Assembly (NCBI GenBank): GCA_001543005.1
Contig: LFLB01000003.1
Location: 78,062 to 142,061 of the forward strand
Direction of reading: 5' to 3'
DNA: 64,000 nt
From: Candidatus Spongiihabitans thiooxidans
Lineage (GTDB): Bacteria; Pseudomonadota; Gammaproteobacteria; Arenicellales; Poriferihabitantaceae
Translations under genes and position numbers: made by a program
Notes under the pieces: generated by a model
Databases searched by the model: none
What the model saw: the letters and a program-made list of their open reading frames with translations, nothing else
What the model was told of the DNA's origin: nothing
Shown here: piece by piece, positions 5,885 to 57,564 of the stretch
Position numbering within the stretch: position 1 is the first letter of the stretch
Layout: each line of letters begins with the position of its first letter

Positions 5885-6748
5885 TTACTTTTCTTTTTCA
5901 GTAAGCATGCAATTGATGATTCGGATATATCGGTCGGCGAGGGGGACGAGTTCCTTATACGCCATATCAAAAACCTCTTGCAACTGCTGAAAATTATCTC
6001 GCTCCCGCAAAGGGGCATAATTATTTTTGTGCATATGTTCTTTGATTCTCTCCAGCCGGTCGGTCTCGCCGAACAAGAATTCTCGATAATCGTTTCCTGC
6101 TTTCCTACTGTTACAGTCTCGACAAGCAGAAACGAGATTTCCGAGTTTATGTTCGCCCAAATATTCTCTGTTTATCGGAATAGCATGGTCAATCACCAAC
6201 TCCCCTTTCGCACCACAATAGGCACACGCACCGCCAAAAAAAATTATAGCTCGTTGCCAATCTTTTTCCGAAAAAGATTCATCCTCCAACCTACCAAGTA
6301 TATATCGTATAAAACCGTTTTGAGAATTGCCTATTGCGTGAGCGCGGTAGCGTCTGCTCAATGAAGATTGTCTCGCGAGAGCAGCGTCTCGCTTTTGTTC
6401 GATTTGCACCGCGCTTTCCGCGTTTGATGCTTGCATTGAATGCAGTAAATTTGCAGCATCTGCTTTGCTGATAATTTTCTTATCAACAAGGTAATTTACA
6501 AATTCGAATTGGTTGTAGGCAAACCATTGGCTTGTTACCCGAACTGTTTTCCCACATACATGATACTCGTTACTCCAAAATCTTAGCGTCTCACGAATCG
6601 AATCCACCTCCATACAAAAAGGGAAATTAACGCCAAACTTCTCTTTGGAGTATTTTTTATCCATCAGGTTTGGCAATTCACCGGGGGCTTTTTCGCACAT
6701 AGCGAAAATACCCGGAATATGACTTTTCACCAACTTACCGATTTTCAT
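5885..6748 (-). CDS. HNH endonuclease with an uncharacterised N-terminal region
   Basis: CAYCG...IDHAIPI...GEHKLGNLVSACRDCNSRK (CxxC-HNH-CxxC); TGATG overlap with the upstream gene. Confidence 0.85.
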   Translation of the reverse strand: MKIGKLVKSHIPGIFAMCEKAPGELPNLMDKKYSKEKFGVNFPFCMEVDSIRETLRFWSNEYHVCGKTVRVTSQWFAYNQFEFVNYLVDKKIISKADAANLLHSMQASNAESAVQIEQKRDAALARQSSLSRRYRAHAIGNSQNGFIRYILGRLEDESFSEKDWQRAIIFFGGACAYCGAKGELVIDHAIPINREYLGEHKLGNLVSACRDCNSRKAGNDYREFLFGETDRLERIKEHMHKNNYAPLRERDNFQQLQEVFDMAYKELVPLADRYIRIINCMLTEKEK

Positions 6749-7764
6749 CACACCGCTAACACAATTTTACCAAAATGGCTGCTGGTCTCCATAGCATGAT
6801 GGGCATCGGCGGCTTTTGCCAACGGATAGATTTCGGATATCAATGGCGCAATTTTGCCGCTCGCCATTAGTGGCAATACCGTTTTGGTAAACGCCGCAAT
6901 GATGGCGGCTTTTTCAGGTAGCGGACGGGGGCGCAAAACCGAGCCGATGATGCTTTGCCGCTTGACCATCGCCAATGCCAGGTTGAGTTCGGCGACGCTC
7001 CCGCCCATCACCCCGATCAGCATCAGCGTGCCGCCGACCGCAAGACATTGCATGTTTGGCTTCAGGTAAGCTGCGCCAATATGATCGAGAATCACATCCA
7101 CGCCGCGCTGGTCAGTAATTTCCTTGACTTTATCCGCGAATGATTCGTTCTGATAATCGATCACGTAATCGGCGCCGAGTTGCTTGACGCGCGCGACTTT
7201 TCCACTGGAGGCAGTCACGATGATATTAGTATCCGGCGCCAACTGTTTGCATAGCTGGATGGCGGCGGTATTGACCCCGCCGCCGCCGCCGTGAAGCAAT
7301 ACGGATTGATTGGCCGGCGGGCCGGTTGACTGGCCAACCGATTGATCTCGCCCCAACCCGGCAATCATAAAAAGATTCAGGTACGCGGTCAGGTAGGTTT
7401 CACAAACGCAGGCGGCCTGGTTGAAATCCATGTTCTCGGGAATAGCCATAGCATGATCGGCATAGGCAACGGCATATTCGGCGTATCCGCCGCCGCCGAT
7501 GAGCGCCATCACCCGCTCGCCAATTTTCCACTGCGTCACATGCGCGCCGAGCACCGCCACGGTGCCAGCCACTTCCAGGCCGAGAATTTCAGATTCGCCT
7601 TTGGGCGGGGCATAGTTTCCCTGGCGTTGGATTACATCGGGCCGGTTAACCGAGGTCGCCGCCACTTTGATTAAGATTTGTCCGTCGCCGACAAGCGGGC
7701 GTTCGGCATCGCCGAAAACCATCATTTCCGCGCCGCCAAAGCCATTCAGCAGGATCGCTTTCAT
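6748..7764 (-). CDS. NAD(P)H:quinone oxidoreductase, PIG3/zeta-crystallin family
   Basis: VNRPDVIQRQGNY, LGLEVAG, GGGYAEYA, HGGGGGV, HFGKIVL. Confidence 0.92.
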   Translation of the reverse strand: MKAILLNGFGGAEMMVFGDAERPLVGDGQILIKVAATSVNRPDVIQRQGNYAPPKGESEILGLEVAGTVAVLGAHVTQWKIGERVMALIGGGGYAEYAVAYADHAMAIPENMDFNQAACVCETYLTAYLNLFMIAGLGRDQSVGQSTGPPANQSVLLHGGGGGVNTAAIQLCKQLAPDTNIIVTASSGKVARVKQLGADYVIDYQNESFADKVKEITDQRGVDVILDHIGAAYLKPNMQCLAVGGTLMLIGVMGGSVAELNLALAMVKRQSIIGSVLRPRPLPEKAAIIAAFTKTVLPLMASGKIAPLISEIYPLAKAADAHHAMETSSHFGKIVLAV

Positions 7765-7804
7765 GTTCGTTCAGCCGGGGAATTGCGATACAGATCGGGG
7801 CACC

Positions 7805-7956
7805 TGAACCAGTTAACACTGACCAGTGTTACCGTGCAACGAGCTATCGTTCCAGCAACAAAATGTTCGACCAATCGAACTTGTTTGGCCTTGCTTAATC
7901 TACTCTTTCTCATACGACCACAATAGCATTTGGATGGTGTTATCTGATGCGGCCTT
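7805..7956 (-). mobile_element. IS1595-family (IS1016-like) transposase remnant with probable left end
   Basis: MRKSRLSKAKQVRLVEHFVAGTIAR resembles the IS1016 transposase N-terminus; upstream minus-strand ggccgcatcagataac resembles an IS1016-type end. Confidence 0.7.
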
Positions 7957-8104
7957 AACAAAATTTGTGGATTGGTTCAATTGATCAAGGGGAGTAATTA
8001 TTAATCGTGGCTAAGTTTGAGCAATTTCTGGTTGTTGTCGATCAGGGGTATGCCCGCTAACCAACTCAATTAAAGGGCCTACTTGTTGTTGTGTAGCTCA
8101 AATG

Positions 8105-9010
8105 TTATTCGATCAAACGAACTCTCTCAGAATAATTTGGTCTATCAATCTGCAACACATTTGTAGCATGGATAGAACAGAATTTGAGTAAATTTGAAAG
8201 CAATCCTTTCACATCCTTTCGATAAGGCGCAGGGTCATCTTGTAAGTCGTTATGTAGCTTGCTGGATAGAGTGCCAAAATATAATCCATTAGACGGATCC
8301 AAATTCAACTGGTCAACTAGCCATCGAAAGCTTTTTGTTGCTCTGAATCTATCTCCCACTCCATCCTTTTCGTTTCCTAAAAAAAGTTCTACATCGTGTT
8401 TGTGCTGCTCGGCATCAAAATCTAGGGTGTCAGGTGGAAACCATGGAAAATCATAAACCCAAATGGAAGCACTTTCATTGAACATACCCTCTGGCCATCG
8501 ATTCGGCATATTTTCTTGATTTACAGGAGATTTCCCCACGAACTTTTGCATCTCCTCAAGTTTTGCAGGTGTTATTTCAATAGCTTCTTTGAACAGTCTA
8601 TCAATAAATTGTAGATTTTCTTCACTACATTCGGCTTCTGTGCTTGATTCTAAATTCCCCTCGCCATAAATTTTTAGTCCTCGTGCCGTAAAATTGGCAC
8701 TTCCAACAAAAATCAACTTTCGATCCATACAGTAAATTTTTGCGTGTAGATGTGAAAGACATTTCATCCCCCATCCATTAGACATTGATTTTGATACAGC
8801 ATCAAAACTAGAAGCGCCTGATATAAAATCCATCGGGGTTAGCCTACCAATAATTGAAACCACAGATTCAAGTGAAAGATGGAATTCCAACCACTCAATA
8901 GCAGGAGTTGTGATGTAGGCACTTGTTACAAGTAATTCCTTTGTATGCGGGAATTTCTGTTCAAGGCTTCTTCTGAGACCGCTACTAGAAAGGATTTTTC
9001 CACTTGTCAC
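8105..9010 (-). CDS. Phospholipase D (HKD) family nuclease
   Basis: SAYIT, HAKIYCMD (HxKxxxxD), FVGSANFT and GNLE motifs; last gene of the six-gene operon. Confidence 0.85.
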   Translation of the reverse strand: MTSGKILSSSGLRRSLEQKFPHTKELLVTSAYITTPAIEWLEFHLSLESVVSIIGRLTPMDFISGASSFDAVSKSMSNGWGMKCLSHLHAKIYCMDRKLIFVGSANFTARGLKIYGEGNLESSTEAECSEENLQFIDRLFKEAIEITPAKLEEMQKFVGKSPVNQENMPNRWPEGMFNESASIWVYDFPWFPPDTLDFDAEQHKHDVELFLGNEKDGVGDRFRATKSFRWLVDQLNLDPSNGLYFGTLSSKLHNDLQDDPAPYRKDVKGLLSNLLKFCSIHATNVLQIDRPNYSERVRLIE

Positions 9011-9036
9011 AACTTGGAATTCTCAAGTAATATGCC

Positions 9037-10854
9037 TTAATCAATTGATGTTGCGACTATTGTTATTTTTCTTTCTAGAAATCTCTTAGCTATTCTGCCC
9101 CAATCAGCCCTTGCCTCTTGCGCTTGATTTTTGAGATATCCGTCCGGTTGCTCATCTTCATATCTGGCCCATGCCATAATCACTAACTTCAAAGCATCTA
9201 GTATGTCATTTTTATCACTTAATTCTAGCTCCTGCTCTTGGCCTAAATTAGAGTCATCGCCTTCTAACAGTTTAATCAATTTGTCGTAAAAGGGGTGATT
9301 GATATTTAATATTATTAATAGTTTACCACCTTTAGGTCTGACACTAAAAAAAGCATCCCCATCAATATCACCGGAGTTGATTGTGTACTTGTAATTATCA
9401 TTTACTATGGTAGCAGCTAGTGTATCAGAATTGGATATATTCGCATCGCTCAAACTTCTTTCGATTTCTGTCCTTTTATCCTGATCACTCATGGACTCGC
9501 CTGCATCACTTCTCCCTACTGACCCACGTTCCTGTAACTCTTTTGTTGCCTCTGTAGCAATTACTTCTACTGTAGTAGATTGATGATGTCTAGTTCTTCT
9601 AGTGCCTTGTGTCTGCAATTTCAAAGCCTTCCTAATACTTCCTAGATTACTTTTTATACTATTTGCAATCTCAATTAAAATTGCTTCAGGGTCATGATTT
9701 TGTTTCAATTCATCCAAATATTCACTGAATGTTCGGCCTTCATACAACTCTTCACCAATGTCCATCAAGTCAGAAGTGAATTTTCTCGCTGATTGCTTAT
9801 TATTTGAAACACCAAAAACATCGTCGAGGCTTGGAGGAAACTCCACCTCAATGCCCCACCAACGCTCTATCGGATCATATTGTATTGTCCATCTAGTATC
9901 TAAGTCTAATTCTCGTTTAGCTCGCACAATGGAAACCCCTAAATTTTTTTGAGCGTGCTTACCATGTGGCTTACGACCAGCATCGCCCCCAAACATCTTT
10001 ACATCCCTTGCATCTTCTCTAGCATAAGTGAATCTAACTTTAACGTCATGGTCTTCACCGTTGTGGTTCACAGAAAATGTATTTTCATAATCATCGCCCC
10101 CCCATCTGTTGAACATCGCTGTACTTTTGAAAGGATCAGGGCATGAAGTTTGTTCCATTAGATAAATAGGATCATTGGTTTCGAAATTTTTTGGGTCTTC
10201 CAAAGCATGGCCTGATTCATCTTCGCCAATCATCTTAATCACAACCTTGCCATTCTGGATAAAATATCGGTACATTCGCCCAATCAAGTTTTCTGAATGC
10301 GTGAATATTGATTTTGCAGTCTGCCACTGGCATCTATCTATTTTTGACCATAAAACCATAGTTCCGCTTGTGCTCGTAACATGCTTTTTCCATTCATGAG
10401 GAATATCCCTTTCTTCGGGTTTAGGAACTTCTTTTAGAACTTTGCCTATAATTTTGTCTATATCAAGGTAACTGTACAGTGCCTTTCCTCCATTTTTCCA
10501 AGTGTAAACCTCTACTCTCTTACATTGCGAAATAGAAGAATTAGGCAAACCCATACCAAACTTACCTATACCTTTTTGCTTCTCTGGCACCAAATTAGTT
10601 CCGTTGCCGAATTGCAACGACATTCGTAAAACACGGCCATCCATTCCTACACCGTTGTCTATTACTGCAATACTATTAATCTGCTTTCTCCCCCCGACTT
10701 TTCCTTCAATACAAACAAGTTTGACTTCATCTGCATCAGCCTGTATTGAATTGTCTATCAGTTCTGCAATCGCATACGCGGCATTTTTATATCCGTTATC
10801 TCTCATTGCTTTTACAGCTAAATATGCTGGTACTATTTCATGTGCTTCATTCAT
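9037..10854 (-). CDS. GHKL/MORC-type ATPase (HATPase_c_3)
   Basis: AIAELIDNSIQA (N box), IDNGVGM (G1), GKFGMGL (G2), SGT (G3); C-terminal LNINHPF. Confidence 0.88.
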   Translation of the reverse strand: MNEAHEIVPAYLAVKAMRDNGYKNAAYAIAELIDNSIQADADEVKLVCIEGKVGGRKQINSIAVIDNGVGMDGRVLRMSLQFGNGTNLVPEKQKGIGKFGMGLPNSSISQCKRVEVYTWKNGGKALYSYLDIDKIIGKVLKEVPKPEERDIPHEWKKHVTSTSGTMVLWSKIDRCQWQTAKSIFTHSENLIGRMYRYFIQNGKVVIKMIGEDESGHALEDPKNFETNDPIYLMEQTSCPDPFKSTAMFNRWGGDDYENTFSVNHNGEDHDVKVRFTYAREDARDVKMFGGDAGRKPHGKHAQKNLGVSIVRAKRELDLDTRWTIQYDPIERWWGIEVEFPPSLDDVFGVSNNKQSARKFTSDLMDIGEELYEGRTFSEYLDELKQNHDPEAILIEIANSIKSNLGSIRKALKLQTQGTRRTRHHQSTTVEVIATEATKELQERGSVGRSDAGESMSDQDKRTEIERSLSDANISNSDTLAATIVNDNYKYTINSGDIDGDAFFSVRPKGGKLLIILNINHPFYDKLIKLLEGDDSNLGQEQELELSDKNDILDALKLVIMAWARYEDEQPDGYLKNQAQEARADWGRIAKRFLERKITIVATSID

Positions 10855-10857
10855 CGC

Positions 10858-12465
10858 TTAACTCCAAACATCGTTCCAATTATTGAAAGCTTCAGCCACG
10901 CTGCCAAAACCACTTAAATTTTTATCTACTACAGTAACAACTTTTGCATTTTTGTTACCTCCTGCTTTCACACCTCTAATTGCTCTCCCAACCATTTGAC
11001 TATACAGAACCAATGAGTTAGTCGGCCGCGCAATAACCGCTACGTTGGTTTTTGGTGCATCAAAGCCAGTTGTTAAAACGGCATAGTTACAAATAACCAT
11101 GCAATCATCGCCACTTGCTCTAAATTTCTCAATAATGGCAGTTCTATCTTGTAAAGAAGTCTTCGCTGTAACAGATTTTGCATTGATGCCCTTATACTGC
11201 AACATCGCAGATAATAAAACTGAATGTTTTGCCGCCGCCGCAAACACAATGATTCGATTTGCTTGCTTTGCTAGTTCTATTACTTTGTCAATAATCAACA
11301 TATTTCTTTGGGCATCGTCTGCTATTTGTTCAAGAATATTGGTAGGCAAATCAGTACTTTCACGAATTCTTTCTATGTCAGGTTGAGCTAAATCCATACC
11401 AAAATTATAGAACAACGGTTCAAATTCAACCTTTGCTAAATATCCCTCTGACACTAAAAAATCAACAGGATTGCTAAAATTAGGCACTTCTAGTGTATGT
11501 TTTTTATATTTAAAAAATTTTGCTAATTTCTCATCTGCGTCCATATCACTCCATGTTCTACCGGGTGTTGCTGTAAGCCCTAACAGGTGCGTTTTATCTT
11601 TGTATTCAGGTGCCAGCAAGTCTAGTACAACACTATAAGTAGGTGCAACTGCTTGATGTGCTTCATCAATTACAACAAGGGAACAATGCTTTGATAAATT
11701 TTGCATAAACTCTATGCTAGATTTTGCTTTACTTACCATTTTAGGTAATCCTGCAACGATGAAACTGTCCTCTACTTCATCAAGTTTTTCCACATCATAA
11801 ACACCCCAAAAACGATGCAGGCAAACCTCTCTATTTCCCAAAAATTGCCAAGATTTAACAAACTCTTCTGCCGCCTGCTCACACAATTCCTCACTATACG
11901 CTAACCAGATAACTGTTGAACTTAGATGATTGCGCAAATAATGGGCAATGATATTCATAGCAGTTCTAGTTTTCCCAGATCCAGTGGGCATATGGAGCAT
12001 TGCTCGACCTTCGCCACTCAAAAGCTTTAACACTTTTACCGAAGCTAATATTTGATGATCGAATAAAGGATAGTCAGGCTGAATATCTTCTGTACGAAAT
12101 TTTAATTCTCTAGATTCTTCAAAATCAGTTATTCCAAAATGATCGCAAAGAACTTTTTTATTTTTAGAAGTTAGTTTTATATTCTTAATCTGTTGCCAAA
12201 TATCCGAATCAGGCCGTGCTTGCAATCCTAAAGAACTGAGTAAAGTTGTAGCCTCTTTCTTTTTTAGCATATCAAATAATAGATTTCTTGTTTTTAGTGT
12301 TCTCAAAAGATGGAACTCAGAATACATATCAAGCAATACTTGTTGCAATTTTGTTGTGTTGAACCGAGTGGAATCTAGATTCGTTATTAGGTTAACGGTT
12401 GATCTACCTAACAACTCTTGCAAGGTGTCTATATCCGCCCTCGAAATTAAATCTTTCAAGTTCAT
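10858..12465 (-). CDS. SF2 DEAH helicase/translocase (ResIII-like)
   Basis: MPTGSGKT, IDEAH, LTATP, TTGFD and QMVGRAIR motifs. Confidence 0.92.
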   Translation of the reverse strand: MNLKDLISRADIDTLQELLGRSTVNLITNLDSTRFNTTKLQQVLLDMYSEFHLLRTLKTRNLLFDMLKKKEATTLLSSLGLQARPDSDIWQQIKNIKLTSKNKKVLCDHFGITDFEESRELKFRTEDIQPDYPLFDHQILASVKVLKLLSGEGRAMLHMPTGSGKTRTAMNIIAHYLRNHLSSTVIWLAYSEELCEQAAEEFVKSWQFLGNREVCLHRFWGVYDVEKLDEVEDSFIVAGLPKMVSKAKSSIEFMQNLSKHCSLVVIDEAHQAVAPTYSVVLDLLAPEYKDKTHLLGLTATPGRTWSDMDADEKLAKFFKYKKHTLEVPNFSNPVDFLVSEGYLAKVEFEPLFYNFGMDLAQPDIERIRESTDLPTNILEQIADDAQRNMLIIDKVIELAKQANRIIVFAAAAKHSVLLSAMLQYKGINAKSVTAKTSLQDRTAIIEKFRASGDDCMVICNYAVLTTGFDAPKTNVAVIARPTNSLVLYSQMVGRAIRGVKAGGNKNAKVVTVVDKNLSGFGSVAEAFNNWNDVWS

Positions 12466-12480
12466 GGTTGCAAATTATTG

Positions 12481-13347
12481 CTATAAACTACAAATCAAAC
12501 AAGCTTGATCTTCGGGATCATCATCTTCGGCCACACGAAGTATATCCTGCCAACGCTCTGGCAGAGTCTCCGTACTAGCGACAATCCCCCTCTCTTTCTC
12601 CCTCTTTTCAGCTTTAGCCACTAACTCATCCACTGTTCCTTGCGATGACCAAGTATAACCATGACCACCGACATCAACCTCTCCATCCTTCCAATCATAT
12701 TTCTTGCGAACTTGTTGCTCAAACGCCTTGGCTTTTTCAAATAATTCTGGGTGATTTCTTTTCAGGCCAAGCCATTCATCTTGACGCTGGAAGAAACAAA
12801 AATAGCAACCCGACCGCGAACGCCATTTATAATATTCGGGAATGCCTACGGAGTCCTCCAAAATATTGAATATATCATCACGCACCAAGCCGTCATAAAT
12901 AAAGGGAAATACCGCCTTAATGTTCGCTTTGTGGCTTATGTACCCCTCTCGGTTTTCATCGGCTCTTATGCCAATATAAGTGATTACCGGATCATCACCA
13001 ACAAATTCCTCAAAGGGCTTGATTTTCATCACTCGAGTACACCATCGCTGTTTAGCTGATGGCAGGTACTGATTTTGGATTTTCAACCAGTGTTCAAAAG
13101 GTTTTCCGCTACTGAGCTTCGTTATCTCCTTGCCTAAATATGCTTCCAGTTTATCAAGAAAATCATACACCTCCTTAAGCTCGGCACCGGTATCAGAGAA
13201 AAAGTATTCCACCCTCTTGTGTATATCGGGATAACGATCCTTGATATAAATTGCCAGGGCTGCACTGTCCTTGCCACCGGATAAACCTAGAACATGGCGA
13301 GATTGAGTATCGCCTTGAACGGTCTGCATAATTGTCTTTTTAGCCAT
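12481..13347 (-). CDS. sspD: PAPS-reductase-family PP-loop protein, SspD-like (DNA phosphorothioation)
   Basis: LSGGKDS, DTG, RWCT, GIRADE, RSGCYFCF and terminal CLIC; its start overlaps the stop of the SspC-like gene. Confidence 0.8.
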   Translation of the reverse strand: MAKKTIMQTVQGDTQSRHVLGLSGGKDSAALAIYIKDRYPDIHKRVEYFFSDTGAELKEVYDFLDKLEAYLGKEITKLSSGKPFEHWLKIQNQYLPSAKQRWCTRVMKIKPFEEFVGDDPVITYIGIRADENREGYISHKANIKAVFPFIYDGLVRDDIFNILEDSVGIPEYYKWRSRSGCYFCFFQRQDEWLGLKRNHPELFEKAKAFEQQVRKKYDWKDGEVDVGGHGYTWSSQGTVDELVAKAEKREKERGIVASTETLPERWQDILRVAEDDDPEDQACLICSL

Positions 13348-16300
13348 GTTTAACCTGCCTGATCTTTGCTGGTGTTGCATTTTTTCTCTTACTAGAAGAC
13401 GATGCAACTCTATCAGTTAAGAACTCATTTACTAACTCGGCTAGTACTGCTAGTTGCAACTCACTATTCTTATGCTCACACAACACTTGCTTTAGCTTTC
13501 CTTTTACATTCTGTATGGCGATATGGTGGGATTGTTCTATAACGACAACTTCATCAACTAATTTCCCTCCTTTTTTAAGCGATTTAAGAAAGATAACATC
13601 AAAATCGCCGTCACTCTTTATAGATCTTTTATCATGGTGTAATCGTAAAGTTTCCAAGTCCAGGATTCTCTCAGCGAAATAGCTAAGTTTCACATCGGCT
13701 TCGCCTCGGTCTGTATCGGTCCACTTTGCCGACGGCTTTTGCCCTAAAAACATCAAGATATTTTCCAGCCAATTATCATTGTCCCCAGTCGGTTTGGTCA
13801 AGCGTTTGATAAACGCTTTTAAGCCATCAACATCCACGGTGTACTGCTCTAATCCCTCATAACGACTGGATTTACGCCGTAAATCCGCAAGGGACCCATT
13901 TTTATCCATGTGAAATGCCTGCAACAACATCTTGATTTGCTGCTTAATCATATTGGGGTAAGCAGATTTTAGTTCTTGTAGGGACTCATTCAGGGCACTC
14001 GAAAAACCTTCTAAACCGGGTCGTTTCTTTTTCAATTCCTGCTCATAACCTAAGGCCTTAGGGATGCCCTCAAGCAGTAGATTCTCTGGAGATTTAGCAA
14101 GGCTGAATGCATCTCTGACTCGCTTTGCTCTATCGCTGATTTCAACACTTTTTGTTTTTTGCGTGTATAGCTCTAATCCACCTATCCATTTCGCTAAGGG
14201 ACGTGCTAGTTGAACGATAGTCAGTTGATTACCCGATGTAACAACTTTGGAATACTCTTGATATATTGATGCCCTCAATCCGGAAATTCTAAACCGCTGA
14301 AAGGTGAACTCGTCAGGCCGTTTCACAAAACGTTCTATCATTTCCTCGGTAAAGAATGGTCGGTAACGGTGTTCCTCATATAGGGCAAGTTCATGCTGAT
14401 AAACTATATACACGGCGACGTATATTATTGGCAAAATACCTGCCTTTACTCCGTAGGGTGGGCCCATCAGTTGCTGATTTAAATTGGCCAGGGATTTTGC
14501 TTCATCTTCCGTGCTATCCAGGAATGCATCAATTCGTTGCCAAACAGAAAATAAAGTCGAATTCTCTGGAGGTACAACAAACTGCATTGTGTCCGTATTG
14601 TGAACACCCGTTGCACGTAGAATTGAACGATAGATAGCCTTCTCAGGGGGGAATTTTTCTATCCCCAGGTCAACTTTATCTTGGTGATTGAGCATCGCCG
14701 AAAGGAGTTTGTTTCTAGCTGCGTTGGCCTGAGCTGATGGCCTATCCCTGTTAATTAATTCATTATGCAACTTTGGGGCTTTGCTATACGCTTTTTTCAA
14801 TATTAAAGATAAGTTTTTTTGAAAATCTCTTTTATGAATAACAGAAAGTCGCTTGCCGCAACTAAACCAAACATTTTCTTCCGGGTTTTCCAACAAGCTT
14901 TGGAGTATTGCACTTTCTGCTTGCTCCGCTGCAGTCAGACGGTCTTCAAATTCGCGTTTTGCAACCGGGTCACTATTAAGCTCCTGCTTTGTAATTTGCA
15001 CCTGCCGCAGTGCTATCACCTCGGCTGTTGCTTCGCGCAACTGGACACCATTCTGGCACAATCCAACCACGTCCAAATTGGAATAATTCTTCGAAACTTG
15101 CTCGTTAAATATTTTTTCGTCGTCCTGTGCTGCCGCCAAAAAGAAAATTATTCTAGGTGTATCCACTTGATCTGGTGTTTTCTTAAAAGTTTGTGCGTCA
15201 ACAAATTCAGGAACAAAGTAACGTAAAGCACCACTCTCGATTGTGTAGCGTCTAGCAACAACAGACATTAGAGCCTTCTGCTCATTGAGTGTTGTTGCCA
15301 ATGAGAACTCGCCGAGGTTATTCAGTTCTTCTTCAACGGCACTCCCTAAGTCGAAATCACTGCCCGGCCAAACACGATATTCCCCACTAAACCGACGATA
15401 TGTAATTGCTGATTTATCGATGAGTGCTTTGATGACACTAGACACATTGATGCCAGTTTGCACACAGGTTTCCAATATCGCTTTAGAAGGCTTCAAACCA
15501 CCTTTAATGCCGATGATATTTAGAATACCTATCGTTTTAAGCAAACATATTTGCTCTTCGGGAGCATCACCTAATCGCTCCAGTGATGTAACTACTTCAG
15601 CCCAACGTCGATGCGTTGCATGGTTGCCGAGAACCGCCGGCTGATTAGTAATAAAATAGTCGTATAGATGATGTGGATAAACCCACGACTCTATGGAATC
15701 AAGACACGATAGCATATCCTGTAAGCCACACTCCTCGTGGCTACCTAGATAACTAAACAATGTTCTCTCGTTTTGCGCTACTTTCTGGCAAAGCATCGGC
15801 AGCAATATCGCGCTCACCGGGTGCAACGGATAGCAATTGCACAGTAAATCTGTGGCAGATTTTTCATCCAAAACACTAGGCACTGCCTCTTGCTTTATCA
15901 GTATTTTAACGATCTCTGATGTTTGTTTTCTAAGTTTAGCTTTTTCTCTTGTTGAAAAATGATATTCAAAAACAGCGCCAACTACTCTGAGCACTTGCTC
16001 TACTGATTCCAGAAATGGGACTTCTTCAAATCTACCCTGAATTTTTGACCATTCATTTTTTAGGTTCTCGCCTAGTCCCTTCGCGTATTGCTCAAAGGAT
16101 TGATGCAACAGAACAAATAGAAAAAGTTTGCGGTCGCCCTCCGCACATGCTTTCTCTGCTAGTGCTTGCAGAAGGTAAATGTCATTAGCCCCATAATGAC
16201 GCGCTTCGTATTCCAAAAATTTACCTAACTCATCTATAACAAGAACAATGCCTTTACAGTCTGTTTTTTGTAGCGCAATCTGCAATTGATTCACTAGGTC

Positions 16301-16816
16301 AATAATAGCAGTAGTAGGCACGGTTCCACTGTTACATGCATCTGAAAGCAGGTTAACAATTTTGGGATTCTTACCTTTTAACGTCGACCAATACTGTTCC
16401 GAAGCCTGTAATAATCCCTGTAGAATACACTTCCCCATTGCTTGTGGGGAACCGGTAATCAATACTTTGAGATAACCTTTTGTGCCTTTTGTTTCTTTAG
16501 TGAAAACTCTATACAAATCCGGTGATACTGATTTGAGAACTTTATAAGCCGCTTTTGTGGCCGCTGTATCAGGAGACGACAGTAATTGCGACGAAAAATT
16601 TTGACTGGCAGATTTACCCACACCATAAGGTCCCACTATTGACCACGCTCTCGGTGCTTGTTTGTTAGTGAAGCCGTTACTAATCTGGTCAAATAATTTA
16701 AGTGCTCGGGTGGTGGGAATGTAGGCTCGAATAACCTCTGTAGAATCCGCATCTCTCTCCAGATTGACCGAGCGGGTATAATGCGTTTTTATCTGTACTT
16801 TTCCCAGCATACTCAT
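13340..16816 (-). CDS. sspC: Large P-loop ATPase, SspC-like
   Basis: RSVNLERD N-terminus, GPYGVGKS (Walker A), LVIDELGKFLE (Walker B), EWSKIQGRF, YPLHP, QNERTLFSYL, PPYGVK; lies between the DUF4007 and PAPS-reductase genes. Confidence 0.8.
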   Translation of the reverse strand: MSMLGKVQIKTHYTRSVNLERDADSTEVIRAYIPTTRALKLFDQISNGFTNKQAPRAWSIVGPYGVGKSASQNFSSQLLSSPDTAATKAAYKVLKSVSPDLYRVFTKETKGTKGYLKVLITGSPQAMGKCILQGLLQASEQYWSTLKGKNPKIVNLLSDACNSGTVPTTAIIDLVNQLQIALQKTDCKGIVLVIDELGKFLEYEARHYGANDIYLLQALAEKACAEGDRKLFLFVLLHQSFEQYAKGLGENLKNEWSKIQGRFEEVPFLESVEQVLRVVGAVFEYHFSTREKAKLRKQTSEIVKILIKQEAVPSVLDEKSATDLLCNCYPLHPVSAILLPMLCQKVAQNERTLFSYLGSHEECGLQDMLSCLDSIESWVYPHHLYDYFITNQPAVLGNHATHRRWAEVVTSLERLGDAPEEQICLLKTIGILNIIGIKGGLKPSKAILETCVQTGINVSSVIKALIDKSAITYRRFSGEYRVWPGSDFDLGSAVEEELNNLGEFSLATTLNEQKALMSVVARRYTIESGALRYFVPEFVDAQTFKKTPDQVDTPRIIFFLAAAQDDEKIFNEQVSKNYSNLDVVGLCQNGVQLREATAEVIALRQVQITKQELNSDPVAKREFEDRLTAAEQAESAILQSLLENPEENVWFSCGKRLSVIHKRDFQKNLSLILKKAYSKAPKLHNELINRDRPSAQANAARNKLLSAMLNHQDKVDLGIEKFPPEKAIYRSILRATGVHNTDTMQFVVPPENSTLFSVWQRIDAFLDSTEDEAKSLANLNQQLMGPPYGVKAGILPIIYVAVYIVYQHELALYEEHRYRPFFTEEMIERFVKRPDEFTFQRFRISGLRASIYQEYSKVVTSGNQLTIVQLARPLAKWIGGLELYTQKTKSVEISDRAKRVRDAFSLAKSPENLLLEGIPKALGYEQELKKKRPGLEGFSSALNESLQELKSAYPNMIKQQIKMLLQAFHMDKNGSLADLRRKSSRYEGLEQYTVDVDGLKAFIKRLTKPTGDNDNWLENILMFLGQKPSAKWTDTDRGEADVKLSYFAERILDLETLRLHHDKRSIKSDGDFDVIFLKSLKKGGKLVDEVVVIEQSHHIAIQNVKGKLKQVLCEHKNSELQLAVLAELVNEFLTDRVASSSSKRKNATPAKIRQVKHG

Positions 16817-17733
16817 GCCGCTTTTCTCTTTTTGATTGTTGCATAATGCTGCTTAATGAACGCTAAAGGCGCTAGTTTTTCTGATAAGTATAATTGATGC
16901 TGCCCCGCCGTATCTCTCATCTCAAAAACACCAGGAATATAATAGACCAAGCGTTCTAATTTTGTGACCAACCCGCTTTCCGTTAGACGAAATACCGAAC
17001 CGGGCGCAGGGAATTCATCGCGACTGTACATTAAATCTTCAATCGGTAACGCAACGATGCCTTTAGCTGCAAACATTTGACAGACTGCAAACCCAAGAAT
17101 GCCCAAAGGTAATTGTGGGCGTGCTTGAGGAAGGGATTGATAACTGCGGCCACCCGCCGATTGAGATACTAGTTTTAGCAATGCAAAAGGAGAATCAAGG
17201 GCATCCTCTAAAGGTGTGTGCGTATTGCCTTTTGACTGAGTGTACATTCTAGGGAGCAATAGCGCATCATTCTTTAAGGTACTAGGAGATGGCTTTTTCC
17301 TATCGTGTACCCGGTCATTCACATAATCGATCAAAGCGGTGGTCAGTTGCTGGCCGGTAAATTCTGGTTTGTGATAGCGATTAAAGAACCAAAACCATGA
17401 CGTAGCCAACTCGGGATTTGTCACTAATAACCAATGCAGTAGCCAGATGGTCGCTTCGTCTTCCAAATAGGGGTCAAACCCTCTCTTGCTCAAGAGATGC
17501 TTGCCCAAATCCGTTGGCTTGCCGGTGCCGGGGTCAATCATCTGGCAAGCCTTAAGCCAATATTTGATTGCCGCTACCATATTCTTGCCGACACCCAGCA
17601 CAACCGTAGCATCCTCGGATTTAAAGATTTTAGAGTTCTTTACAACCGCCTGAAACCCTTTAGAAAGCCAGCCATAGCGGAGCGCAAAAGTCTCATGCCG
17701 CCCGAAAGCCATACTTTCTGCATTAAACTTCAT
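16813..17733 (-). CDS. sspB: DUF4007 family protein, SspB-like
   Basis: FGRHETFALRYGWLSKG, LGVGKNMV, DPYLED and WLLHWLL are DUF4007 hallmarks. ATG at 17733 has a GAGGGAG RBS. Confidence 0.85.
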   Translation of the reverse strand: MKFNAESMAFGRHETFALRYGWLSKGFQAVVKNSKIFKSEDATVVLGVGKNMVAAIKYWLKACQMIDPGTGKPTDLGKHLLSKRGFDPYLEDEATIWLLHWLLVTNPELATSWFWFFNRYHKPEFTGQQLTTALIDYVNDRVHDRKKPSPSTLKNDALLLPRMYTQSKGNTHTPLEDALDSPFALLKLVSQSAGGRSYQSLPQARPQLPLGILGFAVCQMFAAKGIVALPIEDLMYSRDEFPAPGSVFRLTESGLVTKLERLVYYIPGVFEMRDTAGQHQLYLSEKLAPLAFIKQHYATIKKRKAA

Positions 17734-17830
17734 TAGCACTCCCTCTTGTACATTGTCGTCTAATGTAATCGGTGTCAATGATGATTCGTTTATTATCGTC
17801 TGTATCCATTTTCAGCACCTTCAGTACTAT

Positions 17831-17882
17831 ATTAACACCATAGACTATGATACACGATTAACACCATAGACTATGATACACG
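17831..17882. repeat. Perfect 2 x 26-bp tandem repeat upstream of the ssp-like operon
   Basis: attaacaccatagactatgatacacg at 17831-17856 and 17857-17882. Confidence 0.95.
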
Positions 17883-18007
17883 CCCCGATTCGGTAGGGCC
17901 TCCCAAAAAATAAACATCTACGAGAATCTGCGGATTTAATCAATGAGCAAAACGCGCCCTGATGAAAAAATTATATGTTCCCTCATACGAAGAAATCGCG
18001 ATGAAAA

Positions 18008-42593: not shown

Positions 42594-45020
42594 ATGAATA
42601 TAGAAGAGAGAACCAACCATCTCGTAAGGAATATATTGCGTGATTTGGGGTATTACGACGAAATCTCTTTATTGAAGGATGGTGATGTCTGTGTGGAAGA
42701 AAAACAATCTACAAATGAATCAATTAGAAAATTACTGTCCACGGCAAGTAAGCACGGAACGGGCGAATACGGTTATCCTGAATTTATTATATCTCAAAAC
42801 AATAGCGATGTTGTGTTGGTAATAGAATGCAAAGCATCCACAAAACATCATGAGAGTGCATATAAAGATCAACCGGTAAAATATGCTGTAGACGGCGTAC
42901 TGCATTACGCAAGATTTCTTAAGAATAAGTATAATGTTATCGCCATAGCGGTCAGCGGTCAGAACAAGAAAAGTCTTAGAACATCCTCTTTTGTTTGGAA
43001 AAAAGATATTTCTGATTACTATCGTAAAGGATGGAAATTTATCACTTCATATGACGATTATTGCCGAGAGTTTCACAATAACTCGGATGTTTTAACTTTG
43101 AGCGACCTTAGAAAATACGCCCGAGATTTACACAACAGCATTAGAAATCACGCTAAACTAAAAGAAACACAAAAACCGCTTTTTGTCGGAGGGTTGTTAT
43201 TGGCGCTGGACAACAAAGATTTTTCAAATGCATATGAAAAAATTACCGGCCCTAAAAAACTTGCCAGAGATATTATCTCTGCCATTAAAGACAGTTTAAT
43301 GGAAAGCGGGATGGATGCCGATAAAGTAAATTTTGTTTCCAGGGAATTTGAGTTTATTGAAACACACACATACTTAATTAATGGGACAATCAATGTAAAT
43401 AATCCATCATACTACAACAATGTTTTACATAAAATATTATCCGACCTCCACAGTAAAATTTATCCTTCTATGAAGTCAGCTAGTATCTCCAATGTGGATT
43501 TCATGGGAGAATTTTATCAAGAGTTTATTCGCTATACAGGAGGGGATGGCAAGGGGCTTGGAATTGTTTTAACGCCACGACACATAACCGAACTATTTGT
43601 TGAGTTGGCGGATGTTCACAAAAACTCCAAAGTGCTCGATTTATGTGCTGGGACGAGTGGTTTTCTGGTTGCTGCAATGTCAAAAATGTTGCGAGGCGAT
43701 TTGACTGTAAAGGAAATAGAGCAAATAAAAAACAAAAACCTTTATGGAGTGGAATCTCAACCTGACATATTTGCATTAGCGTGCGTGAATATGTTTATTA
43801 GAGGAGATGGTAAAGCCAACCTAATAAAAGAAGATTCTCTTTCTGAAAGTAATAATCAAATTAAAGAGTTTTATGGGAAATGTCAGGTTGGATTAATGAA
43901 TCCACCATATTCACAAAAAGAACAGAAAGAGCTGGAATTTGTAGAACGTATGTTGGATATGCTGGCAATTGACGGGCGTGGTATTGTTATTATTCCTATA
44001 AGGAACACGAAATCCGATGATGAGATTCGCGAAAGAATACTGCAAAAACACACATTGGAATCAGTAATGATAATGCCATCTGATTTATTTGTAAAAGTTA
44101 ATACACATACATGCATAATGACTTTCATTGCGGGAAAACCACATCACGGAAAAACTTGGTTTTCTTTGTGGGACGAAGATGGGTTTACAAAATTTAAAAA
44201 TAATAGAATCGATAGATATGACAAATGGGCCGCCATAAAAAAATCGTGGTTAAAAGATTATCGATCAAAAATGGAGACTCCCACCAGTATATTAAAAGAA
44301 GTTAAGTATAGCGATGAGTGGTCGGCCTTGGCTTATTTGCCAACCGATTACTCCGAGTTGTCCATGCGAAATTTTAAGGAAACCATTAGAAATCATAAAT
44401 TATGTCAAATGCGGCAACAACACCTTGTGCCGGGCCGTTCTGTTACAGATCATGTGGAGGCTATTTTAGACAACAAGGAATCGCTGGAACTATTTTCCAT
44501 CAATGCGGATCAAGATACACAAAAAACATCAATGTCAGGATGGAAATTTTTTCTGTTATCAGACCTTTTTGATGTCACGGGATCAAAAACCACCCCTTTA
44601 GACGAGTTATTGGAAATGGAGAGCACTCATCCTGAAAACCGAAAATACCCATATATTACAACCAAGGCAAGTAACAATGGGGTGGACAATTACTTTCCGC
44701 ACTATACGCAAGAGGTCGGTGATGGAGTATTGACTATAGATAGCGCAACAATTGGCTATGTTTCTTACCAAACACAAAATTTTTCTGCCAGTGATCATGT
44801 GGAGATTTTGACTCCCAAGTTTAAAATGAATAAATATGTTGGATGTTTTTTTCAAACTATTCTCAATTTGGAGCAATTTCGATATGGATATGGAAGAAAA
44901 TTCAATCAAATAAGAATTAAAGAAACAAAGTTGTTTTTGCCTTATGCTAACGGTCAACCTGATTACAAAACCATGGAAACGACAATTCGCAGAATAAACA
45001 AAATGGAATGGTTCTGCTAA
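42594..45020 (+). CDS. BcgI-like restriction-modification protein: PD-(D/E)xK nuclease + N6-adenine MTase + fused C-terminal TRD
   Basis: GYPEFII...VIECKA nuclease motif, GIVLTPRH, LDLCAGTSGF (motif I), NPPY (motif IV); C-terminal WKFFLLSDLF...NNGV...RYGYGRK specificity-like domain. Confidence 0.85.
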   Translation: MNIEERTNHLVRNILRDLGYYDEISLLKDGDVCVEEKQSTNESIRKLLSTASKHGTGEYGYPEFIISQNNSDVVLVIECKASTKHHESAYKDQPVKYAVDGVLHYARFLKNKYNVIAIAVSGQNKKSLRTSSFVWKKDISDYYRKGWKFITSYDDYCREFHNNSDVLTLSDLRKYARDLHNSIRNHAKLKETQKPLFVGGLLLALDNKDFSNAYEKITGPKKLARDIISAIKDSLMESGMDADKVNFVSREFEFIETHTYLINGTINVNNPSYYNNVLHKILSDLHSKIYPSMKSASISNVDFMGEFYQEFIRYTGGDGKGLGIVLTPRHITELFVELADVHKNSKVLDLCAGTSGFLVAAMSKMLRGDLTVKEIEQIKNKNLYGVESQPDIFALACVNMFIRGDGKANLIKEDSLSESNNQIKEFYGKCQVGLMNPPYSQKEQKELEFVERMLDMLAIDGRGIVIIPIRNTKSDDEIRERILQKHTLESVMIMPSDLFVKVNTHTCIMTFIAGKPHHGKTWFSLWDEDGFTKFKNNRIDRYDKWAAIKKSWLKDYRSKMETPTSILKEVKYSDEWSALAYLPTDYSELSMRNFKETIRNHKLCQMRQQHLVPGRSVTDHVEAILDNKESLELFSINADQDTQKTSMSGWKFFLLSDLFDVTGSKTTPLDELLEMESTHPENRKYPYITTKASNNGVDNYFPHYTQEVGDGVLTIDSATIGYVSYQTQNFSASDHVEILTPKFKMNKYVGCFFQTILNLEQFRYGYGRKFNQIRIKETKLFLPYANGQPDYKTMETTIRRINKMEWFC

Positions 45021-45097
45021 AAAACACCAATAGTAAAGACAACGCTTTCCATAGGGCGGGAAATATCAAATATCGTGCTTGGTGAAAAGCTAACGTT

Positions 45098-45364
45098 ATG
45101 TCCAACCAACCTATTCACAAAACCAGCAACGTTCTCGCCTCCCTCGCCGTATTCGTCATCGTGGTGGGCGGCATGGAAATTGCCGCGCCGCTGTTGCTTG
45201 CATTGTTTATCGCGATTTGGACCGCTTCGCCCTACGCGTGGTTGCAGAACAAGGAGAAGGGAGTTTCGCGGCCGTTGGCGCTGCTCGGCGGACTGCTGGA
45301 CTGGCTGAACCAGGGGGCATCAGCGTCTCCAACAGCGAGGTGGCCGAGCGTAAATTTTGTGTGA
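45098..45364 (+). pseudogene. AI-2E/PerM family transporter N-terminal fragment
   Basis: LAVFVIVVGGM..AAPLLLALFIAI...P..WLQ..GV.R.LA, then truncated. Confidence 0.6.
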
Positions 45365-45496
45365 TCGATTATTTAAGCGGCCGTTAACCCCTTTCAACTA
45401 TGCTGTCTCAGGCGTGGTTTTTGTGTCTAGTTCTGCGCAGAAATCGCGCTTGCAATTCTTGCAATATGAAGAGCCAATAAATGAAAAAAGCATTTA

Positions 45497-46561
45497 ATGA
45501 ATTCCATACGCCACATTATCAAGCAAGCAAAAGCAAATCCGAAAAGGATTGTCTTGCCCGAGGCTGGCGACCTTAGGGTTATTGAAGCCGCTTCATTGAT
45601 ATCTCAGCAAGGGCTGGCGCAAGTCATTTTAATTGGAGAGCGTAATGACGTATCGCAATTGGCCCGCTCTCATCATATTGGCCATAACATCGACTTGTCC
45701 AATGTAGAGATCGAGAATTCCGAAAAAAAAGACGGGCAAAGCGATAACGCCGAAAAATATATTGATGCCCTTTTTCAAGCGCGGCAGCATAAAAAAGACC
45801 AGATTAAAAAAAGCGGGCATAAAAAACTTACGCTGGACCAAGCACGCGAACAGGTTGCCGACCCGCTAATTTTTGCCGCGCTCAAAGTGCTTAGTGGCGA
45901 TGCCGACGGGTTTGTCGCCGGCGCGGTGAACACAACCGCCGATGTGGTAAAAACAGCGTTACAACTGATTGGCATGAAACCGACCTGCAAATTGGCATCC
46001 AGCTTTTTTTTAATGCAGCATGACTTGGCACATCAGGCTATTCAAGGCACCGCCATTTACGCAGATTGCGCGTTAGTCATTGATCCCGATGCCGAGCAGT
46101 TGGCCGGCATTGCCATCGCCTCGGCGGATAGCGCAAAAAATCTGGCCGGGTTGGAACCAAAAGTTGCGCTGCTTTCTTTTTCAACGGCGGGCAGTGCAAA
46201 GCATCCGAATGTGGACAAGGTAATCGAAGCGGGAAGAATAATCAGCCAAAAAAGACCCGACATTACGCTGATGACAGAAGTGCAATTTGATTCGGCAATT
46301 GTTGCCAATATCCTGAGACAAAAAGCACCGAATATCTCCGTTGATGCGCCTGCAAATGTGTTTATTTTTCCCGAGTTACAGTCGGCCAATATCGGCTATA
46401 AAATAGCGCAGCGCATCGGTGGCGTAACCGCAGTGGGGCCGATACTTCAAGGGCTTAAACACCCGGTTAATGATCTTTCTCGCGGATGCAGCGTACAAGA
46501 TATTGTGCAATTGGTTGCGGTCACCTCGGTGCAAGCCGGCTCAAATGAAAATCGAATTTAA
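45497..46561 (+). CDS. pta: Phosphate acetyltransferase
   Basis: RIVLPE, SSFFLM, ADCA, ALLSFST, QFDSA, ANIGYK, GPILQG, NDLSRG. Confidence 0.95.
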   Translation: MNSIRHIIKQAKANPKRIVLPEAGDLRVIEAASLISQQGLAQVILIGERNDVSQLARSHHIGHNIDLSNVEIENSEKKDGQSDNAEKYIDALFQARQHKKDQIKKSGHKKLTLDQAREQVADPLIFAALKVLSGDADGFVAGAVNTTADVVKTALQLIGMKPTCKLASSFFLMQHDLAHQAIQGTAIYADCALVIDPDAEQLAGIAIASADSAKNLAGLEPKVALLSFSTAGSAKHPNVDKVIEAGRIISQKRPDITLMTEVQFDSAIVANILRQKAPNISVDAPANVFIFPELQSANIGYKIAQRIGGVTAVGPILQGLKHPVNDLSRGCSVQDIVQLVAVTSVQAGSNENRI

Positions 46562-50916: not shown

Positions 50917-50917
50917 T

Positions 50918-50951
50918 ATTAGTATTCGATTAGAATTAGTATTCGATTAGA
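50918..50951. repeat. Perfect 2 x 17-bp tandem repeat immediately upstream of glcB
   Basis: attagtattcgattaga occurs twice. Confidence 0.9.
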
Positions 50952-51220
50952 TTATTGCAACGACTAGGGAACATTCCGCGCAAAATACGGAGCCCTAAAA
51001 TCTCTTTGCTGGTCAAGTGTCAATAATTTTGCTATAGACCGTTTTTAGTATCTGGATTTTAGTTTCAGGTTACAGGTTGTTCGACCACCACATAATATAA
51101 TATTTTTAAGGTTGTTCGCTCAAAGACTCACGTATCTTTTTACCAAGCGAAATACTGTCATGTTTTTTGTGATTTTTAAGTGGATGTTGATGTATTTCAT
51201 CTACATTCTCTTTATGTAGT

Positions 51221-52363: not shown

Positions 52364-52475
52364 AATTTTATCCTGTCAAATAATTCTAATTTTAAAGTTT
52401 TTACCAAAATTCACTCTTTGGGTATAGGTGAAGAATTTGTTAAAATAAATGGCAATATAACTGTTCATTATTTTT

Positions 52476-54803: not shown

Positions 54804-54812
54804 ATTATCGCC

Positions 54813-56873: not shown

Positions 56874-57002
56874 GGTTGTATTTTTCTACTACTATCTGTT
56901 AGCACATCAAACTCGCTTTAATCAGATCTATTTTTAAGTGAAATTATGTCAAGTCCGGCTGTCTATAGACAATAGTACAGTATGGTCCAGAAACCTCGGA
57001 GC

Positions 57003-57056
57003 ATATTGGAATACTTCGGCTGCGTGAACCATATCAAATTGACTGCCAGCGTCAAT
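57003..57056. repeat. Diverged direct repeat, copy 1 (copy of the LysE/ArgO gene 3' end)
   Basis: atattggaatacttcggctgcgtgaaccatatcaaattgactgccagcgtcaat matches 59125-59179. Confidence 0.8.
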
Positions 57057-57096
57057 CTTGCAGAATGTTAAGATACCCTGACCAAAGTCGGGGGCA

Positions 57097-57564
57097 CTAT
57101 TTCTCACTCATCGGCATTGCCTTGCCATGTATCTGTTTGGAATCTGGGCGGTTCCAGTAGCGATTCGGATTATCCTTGTCATCAAGGTATTTGGAACGAC
57201 AACCCCACAGTTCCACCACATGAATCGTTGGCTCCTCGTTAACATGGACTGCAAAAGTGGTTTCAAACACCTTATTCAGCATTTCTTCGTCAATGGGTAT
57301 AGAGATAACAATTTCAGCCGCATCGGTGGTTTGTACCGTGCCTTCATTACCGGCATGGGAGCCATACAGGGCGCGAAAACGCTGACTGCCCTTGCCTCTG
57401 ACATAGGCACAGCTATCATATGCGCCCTGCTTCAACGGTAGTACCTTGCACAAAGCGTCAAGCACGGCATCTACGCCGCCTACCGGTGTTTGAATGGTAA
57501 CTTGCCACTCCCGTTCAAGATACGCTGGAGCCATGTTTATTTGATCGAGTGCATGTTTGCTCAT
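57097..57564 (-). CDS. Small protein with a NIF3/YqfO-type PII-like domain
   Basis: GAYDSC...G..RFR...GS...HVNEEP pattern. Confidence 0.55.
   Translation of the reverse strand: MSKHALDQINMAPAYLEREWQVTIQTPVGGVDAVLDALCKVLPLKQGAYDSCAYVRGKGSQRFRALYGSHAGNEGTVQTTDAAEIVISIPIDEEMLNKVFETTFAVHVNEEPTIHVVELWGCRSKYLDDKDNPNRYWNRPDSKQIHGKAMPMSEK

Follow-up and report, generated by a model that had tools for sequence, protein, structure and literature searches.

Four or five restriction partners are known for defence systems based on phosphorothioate (PT) modification of DNA: DndFGH, PbeABCD, SspE, SspFGH and DndI. Here we describe a locus in which a PT writer of the Ssp type, SspBCD, stands directly beside genes for a helicase, a GHKL ATPase and a PLD-family nuclease, which we refer to below as the trio. 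The locus lies in a 64,000-nucleotide stretch of contig LFLB01000003.1 (forward-strand positions 78,062 to 142,061; assembly GCA_001543005.1) from the gammaproteobacterium Candidatus Spongiihabitans thiooxidans. This stretch at its full length is called the window, and all coordinates of the locus are window positions. Six co-oriented genes on the minus strand occupy 8105-17778, in the order sspB, sspC, sspD, helicase, GHKL ATPase and PLD nuclease. On the strength of sequence and gene neighbourhood, we see a slightly better than even chance that these genes make up a two-module PT defence system of restriction-modification type whose effector is undescribed. Their predicted products are:

16813-17778, minus strand: sspB, the DNA-binding subunit of the PT writer, a DUF4007 protein (321 amino acids; PADLOC and Pfam)
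13340-16816, minus strand: sspC, a large BrxC-like P-loop ATPase (1158 amino acids; PADLOC)
12481-13407, minus strand: sspD, a PAPS-reductase-like PP-loop sulfur-transfer enzyme (308 amino acids; PADLOC and Pfam)
10858-12465, minus strand: an SF2 DEAH helicase or translocase (535 amino acids; Pfam)
9037-10854, minus strand: an ATPase with GHKL and S5-type domains, MORC-like or paraMORC-like, with a helical C-terminal region (605 amino acids; HATPase_c_3 and AlphaFold)
8105-9010, minus strand: a single-HKD nuclease of the PLD family (residues 1-160) with a small helical C-terminal domain (about residues 200-301) (301 amino acids; Pfam and structure model)

In the characterised Vibrio system, IscS and SspBCD suffice to make PT (PMC8092258), so the trio would not be needed for PT writing there. 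A 2021 survey of 2,678 sspBCD clusters found no partner for 83.9% of them, assigned sspE and sspFGH to about 7% of clusters each, and asked what further restriction modules might exist (PMC8092258). Our locus resembles the Ssp systems in its full-length SspB, SspC and SspD, in the placement of the writer beside a separate candidate restriction module, and in relying on a desulfurase that is either in the locus or supplied as IscS (PMC8092258). It differs from those that carry SspE, a DUF262/DUF1524 protein, in having instead a DEAH helicase, a GHKL ATPase and a PLD nuclease. The difference from SspFGH is drawn from the published description, in which the only recognisable features are a Walker A motif in SspF and an FtsK/SpoIIIE-like C-terminus in SspH (PMC8092258). 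The trio, by contrast, has clear ResIII/Helicase_C, HATPase_c_3 and PLDc_2 domains, and Pfam finds no FtsK_SpoIIIE domain in any of its three proteins. An identity of SspFGH with the PLD, GHKL and helicase proteins was considered and rejected; the available text of PMC8092258 uses no helicase, PLD or ATPase words and describes other features.

Among Dnd systems, PbeA, in which an HKD nuclease is joined to an SF2 helicase, is genetically required in PT-linked defence (PMC6459918, PMC10853773); removal of the dnd genes abolishes PbeABCD activity and leaves the cell unharmed (PMC6459918). Our locus shares with DndCDEA-PbeABCD the pairing of a PLD/HKD nuclease and an SF2 helicase with a PT writer, but here two genes, separated by one for a GHKL ATPase, encode the nuclease and the helicase, and the writer is Ssp rather than Dnd. 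The CxC-type ABC ATPase PbeC, the DndE-like PbeD and the small PbeB have no counterpart in the island.

A precedent for the trio as a set is the group of operons described by Iyer, Abhiman and Aravind in 2008, in which a MORC or paraMORC ATPase (GHKL plus S5) accompanies a superfamily II Rad25-like helicase, a nuclease (HKD enzymes included) and methylases (PMC2292703). DNA looping between recognition and cleavage sites was proposed for these operons (PMC2292703), and the generic theme of GHKL ATPase, helicase and nuclease, with methylases, is thus already known. The arrangement of a GHKL-S5 ATPase beside an SFII helicase and a nuclease recurs here, but SspBCD stands where those operons have a methylase, and the terms PAPS, phosphorothio and dnd do not occur in the available text of that paper (PMC2292703).

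A further likeness is to SauUSI and the CglI/NgoAVII enzymes. Our PLD protein is nearest to SauUSI and resembles the NgoAVII R-protein, and SauUSI is likewise among the matches of the helicase. In these enzymes, cleavage is coupled to ATP hydrolysis. SauUSI combines the PLD domain, the SF2 helicase and a DUF3427 reader in a single protein, whereas PLD and helicase are split into two genes here and Pfam gives no DUF3427 match. The trio differs from both SauUSI and CglI/NgoAVII in its added GHKL ATPase and in the C-terminal part of its PLD protein, which is modelled as a small helical unit with no shown B3-like domain.

The writer and the trio

Judged by its sequence, the SspBCD writer is intact and canonical. 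SspB, encoded by the sole DUF4007 gene of the genome, matches the PADLOC SspB model at 1.8e-90 over residues 24-310 and Pfam DUF4007 at 3.3e-80. SspC matches its PADLOC model at E = 0 with 1400 bits, over profile positions 1-1058 of 1064, and has a Walker A motif (GPYGVGKS) at residue 62. SspD matches at 2.4e-100 in PADLOC and at 8e-11 to Pfam PAPS_reduct, and retains the motifs SGGKDS at residue 43, CYFC at 201 and a terminal CLIC at 303-306. The BrxC and BrxP models of PADLOC also match SspC and SspD, far more weakly than the Ssp models do. No cysteine desulfurase gene was found within the island, and IscS-like genes are present elsewhere in the genome (the best at 1.9e-149, on contig C7).

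The helicase matches Pfam ResIII (4e-23), DEAD and Helicase_C, and carries GSGKT at residue 162, DEAH at 267, TAT at 298 and QMVGR at 490. Its nearest solved relatives are RadD (8.7e-18), SauUSI (1.1e-12) and XPB, and its best PADLOC match is the helicase part of PbeA (6.3e-28). Across 42 aligned homologs, T161/G162/G164/K165/T166, D267/E268/A269/H270, A299/T300 and Q490/G493/R494, representing motifs I, II, III and VI, are invariant. The N-terminal segment of about 130 residues is conserved and specific to this family, and matches no known family.

The ATPase matches HATPase_c_3 in Pfam (2.7e-23) and has the motifs ELIDN, DNGVG and GKFGMG. An AlphaFold model built with 47 homologs (pLDDT 85.6) predicts a GHKL domain, an S5-type transducer and then a helical C-terminal part, and in Foldseek it best matches the SMCHD1 ATPase module, MORC2/3/4, Hsp90, MutL and GyrB. 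The ATP-binding residues E31, N35, D66, G70, G97, G100 and G102 are invariant in the 47 homologs. We call the protein MORC-like on the basis of this modelled fold, a label that does not place it in a named paraMORC family. The PADLOC MzaB model matches it over the first ~175 residues only.

The nuclease matches Pfam PLDc_2 (5.5e-7) and the N-terminal PLD domain RE_NgoFVII (2e-5), with HAKIYCMD at residue 89 and GSAN at 103. In a model built with 38 homologs (pLDDT 87), the first ~160 residues match SauUSI, Zucchini, Nuc, NucT and the NgoAVII R-protein in Foldseek. A profile of the family finds SauUSI among PDB sequences at 9.7e-7, and a phmmer search of PDB sequences with the single protein gave nothing meaningful. 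Residues H89, K91, S104, N106, N119 and E121 are invariant in the 38 homologs. Residues 200-301 are modelled as a small helical domain that also has two short strands, and an ESM Atlas search with residues 195-301 returned no usable match. The score of a predicted complex between the GHKL and PLD proteins was 0.00, which is evidence neither for nor against an interaction.

Because catalytic residues are invariant in all three families, the helicase, ATPase and nuclease are predicted to be working enzymes under selection rather than decayed genes. Taken with the fold matches, the trio appears to carry chemistry of the effector type, namely an HKD fold like that of SauUSI and Nuc, a helicase like RadD, SauUSI and XPB, and an ATPase like those of MORC and MutL.

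An earlier note on this DNA, made from the letters alone, had proposed SspB-, SspC- and SspD-like genes followed by those for a DEAH helicase, a MORC/GHKL ATPase and a PLD/HKD nuclease, and each of these identities agrees with the domain, motif and fold matches above. It had also described six co-oriented, AT-rich genes no more than 26 bp apart. The open reading frame (ORF) junctions bear this out, at -4, -68, +15, +3 and +26 bp in order from sspB to the PLD gene (negative values are overlaps), as does the GC content. Of the span that the note gave, the start at 8105 holds, and the end at 17733 corresponds to a slightly later start codon for sspB, the ORF of which reaches 17778.

The note further predicted that PADLOC would recognise SspBCD and leave the effectors unassigned, which is exactly what we observe. 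PADLOC v2 offers no whole-protein system match for the trio, only matches to generic domains; that of the PLD protein, for example, is confined to the HKD motif of DrmC/ZacB. NCBIfam has no specific family for the three effectors, SspB or SspC, with all matches far below the cut-offs. The absence of SspE and PglZ that the note had reported stands: the PADLOC SspE models match none of the six proteins, the rest of the genome has only a weak, partial match of DUF262 type (22.8 bits, on another contig), and PglZ (PF08665) was not found in this 97%-complete genome, so that BREX type 4 is left without its PglZ (BrxL was not searched for). Its view that the trio does not look like SspFGH is likewise in line with the published features of SspF and SspH, which are absent here.

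Association of the trio with the Ssp writer

The combination of writer and trio is widely conserved. A scan for GHKL homologs at one genome per species gave 157 confirmed loci, the best 80 of which were analysed, and full-length relatives of the ATPase occur at 46-64% identity in many phyla. In 74 of the 80 loci, the helicase gene immediately precedes the GHKL gene. For 50 loci with at least 8 kb of upstream and at least 3 kb of downstream sequence, all ORFs were searched by profile and by phmmer, and a locus was counted as Ssp-positive if SspB, SspC or SspD was detected; 42 of the 50 were. Within these 42 loci, the slot after the GHKL gene holds a PLD nuclease in 27 and a small HNH nuclease instead in five, and a NERD-UvrD protein is additional in two. 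The PLD gene is found in only one of the eight Ssp-less loci. Swapping of the nuclease, and its near restriction to Ssp-positive loci, are as would be expected of a nuclease that is tolerated only beside the mark.

All six genes occur together in 28 of the 80 loci. The titles of the corresponding records name Gamma-, Beta- and Alphaproteobacteria, Bacteroidota, Acidobacteriota, Cyanobacteria, Chloroflexia, Ignavibacteriae, Capsulimonadaceae and Caldisericales, which we take to represent about eight phyla. The earlier note had suggested looking for synteny of sspD, helicase, GHKL and PLD genes across taxa, and it is kept at this breadth. The two modules are co-linear in some loci and convergent in others. 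A class-V aminotransferase (cysteine desulfurase) gene is present in 33 of the 50 loci, usually right after the trio, and in the convergent loci it is co-oriented with the trio and not with sspBCD.

Other genes are occasionally inserted between sspD and the helicase: an SspE homolog (7e-63; L009, 6295-8199), a DndB-like gene (7e-23; L015, 7000-8340) and a gene for a second GHKL ATPase (L052, 5923-7701). Because locus L009 holds both, the trio can coexist with SspE in one locus.

The association also holds across whole genomes. In a sample of 301 cyanobacterial genomes, the centre genome, which had been chosen for its orphan pair, was excluded from the ATPase count, leaving 300. The GHKL ATPase is encoded in 8 of 29 genomes with DUF4007 and in 0 of 271 others (Fisher p = 3e-9, a value overstated by kinship), and in seven of the eight the two genes lie on the same contig, 6-17 kb apart. 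Among 400 scored genomes of the organism's own class, with an ATPase cut-off of E <= 1e-50, DUF4007 occurs in eight genomes and the ATPase in two, both within the DUF4007 set; in the second of these, the ATPase and DUF4007 genes are 6 kb apart. With genome G000 excluded, the ATPase is found in one of seven DUF4007 genomes and in none of 392 others. Both full-length relatives of the ATPase in the organism's own family lie close to DUF4007, at 5 and 17 kb. In the unbiased parts of the three samples, then, the GHKL family is confined to genomes with DUF4007 (8/8, 1/1 and 2/2). The earlier note had named a lack of enrichment beside sspBCD as an outcome that would speak against its idea; what we find is enrichment, both across genomes and in the 42 of 50 loci.

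Several variants of the neighbourhood were seen. In a group of Nostocales loci, an HTH-HNH_4 protein of 376-462 amino acids precedes the helicase (L021, 7400-8788; L039, 7524-8912; L028, 7784-8914), which itself lacks the first ~175 residues; a 148-amino-acid HNH protein (L021, 12125-12571) follows the GHKL gene in the usual PLD slot, and sspD was undetected in several of these loci. Fusions of a NERD nuclease to a UvrD helicase follow the GHKL gene, in addition to PLD, in L018 (11938-13137), L061 (11855-13483) and L082. Orphan helicase-GHKL pairs without PLD, in Microcoleus and Nostoc genomes without DUF4007, are found in L046, L047, L049, L060 and L062; the pair in L047 sits amid two-component and transporter genes, and the Microcoleus pair amid housekeeping genes.

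Possible roles of the trio

We propose a mechanism in which SspBCD would receive its sulfur from an IscS-like cysteine desulfurase, a housekeeping enzyme whose gene lies elsewhere in the genome, and would write single-strand PT at a short motif on host DNA. The helicase, GHKL ATPase and PLD nuclease would form one ATP-dependent effector. Within it, the helicase would translocate along DNA, a GHKL dimer would clamp or loop the DNA and so couple ATP turnover to assembly, and two PLD subunits would together build one active site that cuts DNA without the host's PT. Host DNA that carries PT would be spared, and the outcome would presumably be phage restriction. The model draws on three observations: PbeA and SauUSI fuse the same two domains, the MORC/paraMORC operons are analogous, and the nuclease is lost where the writer is absent. 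That PT is made, that the trio acts as one machine and that phages are restricted are thus expectations from analogy. In a variant of this scheme, a MutL-like ATPase with a helicase and a nuclease could use PT as a strand signal, much as methyl-directed mismatch repair uses hemimethylation, since Ssp marks one strand only. We give even chances to the fuller statement that the trio is a PT-reading restriction machine, as yet undescribed, and ranks among the commonest natural partners of SspBCD.

A number of observations weigh against such a restriction effector. The 80 analysed loci are dominated by cyanobacteria; kin among them are not independent, and p-values overstate the association. No recognised nuclease stands beside the helicase-GHKL pair in 10 of the 42 Ssp-positive loci, and 11 of the 59 downstream ORFs examined encode a cysteine desulfurase instead of a nuclease. 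The conserved core is therefore the helicase and the GHKL ATPase, with the nuclease facultative, and this core could act without cutting or in modification. Its position between sspD and the desulfurase would suit an accessory of the writer equally well. Eight loci have a helicase-GHKL pair without ssp genes. Nine genomes with an Ssp-less locus were checked for DUF4007, which is missing from the whole assembly in eight of them; a writer is evidently not needed for the pair to be kept. [quoted passage not shown]

Pairs persist in genomes that lack DUF4007, so the pair is not lethal without the mark, which is what one would predict of an effector that PT stimulates. Host PT would in that case be an activating platform from which incoming DNA is damaged, and without a writer the effector would be inactive and non-toxic. 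SspE, the best-studied Ssp partner, acts in this way (PMC9646914, PMC13251355), and PbeABCD is inactive and harmless after removal of dnd (PMC6459918). We nevertheless think a stimulated effector unlikely, as seven of the eight Ssp-less loci are also without the nuclease, which the toxicity of a classical restriction-modification system fits better, and neither PADLOC nor Pfam detects a DUF262-type PT-sensing domain in the trio. The same conserved pair, with its nuclease missing from 10 of 42 Ssp-positive loci, might instead serve modification itself, through site scanning, loading, control of PT density or PT-linked repair, with the PLD protein as a facultative add-on. The frequent placement of the pair between sspD and the cysteine desulfurase, and the co-orientation of the desulfurase with the trio in convergent loci, would fit such a role, as would the resemblance of a MutL-like ATPase, a helicase and a nuclease to the layout of strand-directed repair (PMC2292703). 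But IscS and SspBCD are enough for PT in the characterised system (PMC8092258), most DUF4007 genomes do without the pair (21 of 29 in cyanobacteria and 6 of 8 in the organism's own class), and defence effectors typically show the kind of nuclease exchange seen in the slot that follows the pair, so a modification accessory seems to us less probable again.

Least probable, in our estimate, is that the trio is an independent ATP-dependent restriction system, whether a split relative of SauUSI and PbeA or one of paraMORC type, that merely shares a defence island with the writer. Defence genes do cluster in islands, orphan helicase-GHKL pairs exist, and operons of a GHKL ATPase, an SFII helicase and a nuclease occur with methylases and no PT genes (PMC2292703). 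Chance neighbourhood of this kind is hard to square with the joint occurrence of the modules across about eight phyla, in several orientations relative to each other, or with the confinement of the GHKL family to DUF4007 genomes. Nor does it fit the close packing of the six genes, which overlap or lie no more than 26 bp apart, and the absence of a methylase gene from the island by PADLOC and Pfam.

The helicase-GHKL-nuclease set is probably new as a partner of Ssp, as far as the literature was searched. Full-text searches, with subscription papers and supplements outside their scope, found no description of Ssp paired with a helicase, GHKL ATPase and PLD nuclease. In studies of Dnd, BREX and Ssp neighbourhoods, GHKL and MORC terms have no occurrence in the available text of PMC10853773 and PMC12839542, nor has 'helicase' in that of PMC12914056. 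The supplementary neighbourhood data of PMC8092258 (Table S2), PMC12914056, PMC10853773 and PMC12839542 may list neighbourhoods of this kind.

Given how many sspBCD clusters are recorded without a partner, the trio is a concrete and widely conserved candidate module, present in about a quarter of DUF4007 genomes (8 of 29 in cyanobacteria, 2 of 8 in the organism's own class). If the restriction reading is correct, it would explain a good part of the sspBCD clusters that are regarded as orphans, roughly 84% of the total. Should the trio be a PT-dependent effector, counts of defence systems in cyanobacteria, Bacteroidota and Acidobacteriota would be incomplete, as PADLOC v2 misses it. It would also represent a MORC-type ATPase acting on an epigenetic mark in the DNA backbone, and could offer a tractable bacterial model for the way in which ATPases of the MORC family translate such a mark into action on DNA.

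The acquired island and its surroundings

The six genes are an addition to their chromosomal setting in the sense that a congener lacks them at the same site. The limits of the insertion and a repeat near its sspB end are:

7770-18004, no strand assigned: the acquired island (comparison with congener G003, and GC content)
17831-17882, no strand assigned: a perfect tandem repeat of 2 x 26 nucleotides directly upstream of sspB

In the same-genus genome G003 (locus L100), about 104 bp separate the ends of the alcohol-dehydrogenase and formate-dehydrogenase alpha genes; here these ends lie at window 7769 and 18005, respectively, 10.2 kb apart, and the six genes are therefore a clean, self-contained insertion. 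Both flanks are housekeeping in character, with genes for a formate-dehydrogenase-type molybdopterin oxidoreductase and a Nuo51-like subunit on one side and for a zinc-type alcohol dehydrogenase and a succinyl-CoA ligase on the other. The GC content is 0.39-0.43 over 8001-18000 and about 0.50-0.52 on both sides. This 10.2-kb, low-GC island is horizontally acquired. No integrase gene, tRNA or flanking direct repeat was seen at its ends. The island holds the six genes and none extra, and because it is this compact it can be cloned directly into Escherichia coli. A megablast search of E. coli genomes with window 7500-18500 returned zero matches.

Contigs from sequencing run X4 cover the entire island at about 98% identity. 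Those from run X2 cover the sspBCD side and the flanks and leave 7868-12070 uncovered, with no contig joining across, which is no evidence for a strain without the trio. Upstream of sspB, a near-identical X2 contig has a single copy of the 26-nucleotide unit, and the tandem repeat seen here may be an operator or a recent slippage event. Promoter-like sites number 24, against 23.8 expected from shuffled sequence, and terminator-like sites 11, against 8.8.

A gene for a 288-amino-acid HNH endonuclease (5885-6751, minus strand) shares 4 bp with the start of the alcohol-dehydrogenase gene, and its GC content resembles that of the host. Congener G003 keeps it, at about 77% identity, but in congener G005 the two neighbouring genes have no such gene between them; it is thus a variable gene in its own right, outside the island.

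Elsewhere in the window, where the background GC is near 0.50, two more stretches of low GC (42001-46000, at 0.41-0.43, and 50001-58000, at 0.31-0.41) may be further acquired islands. A tRNA-Ala(TGC) gene lies beside a tRNA-Ile(GAT) gene at 30607-30974 on the minus strand, a pair that is the usual content of an rRNA operon spacer.

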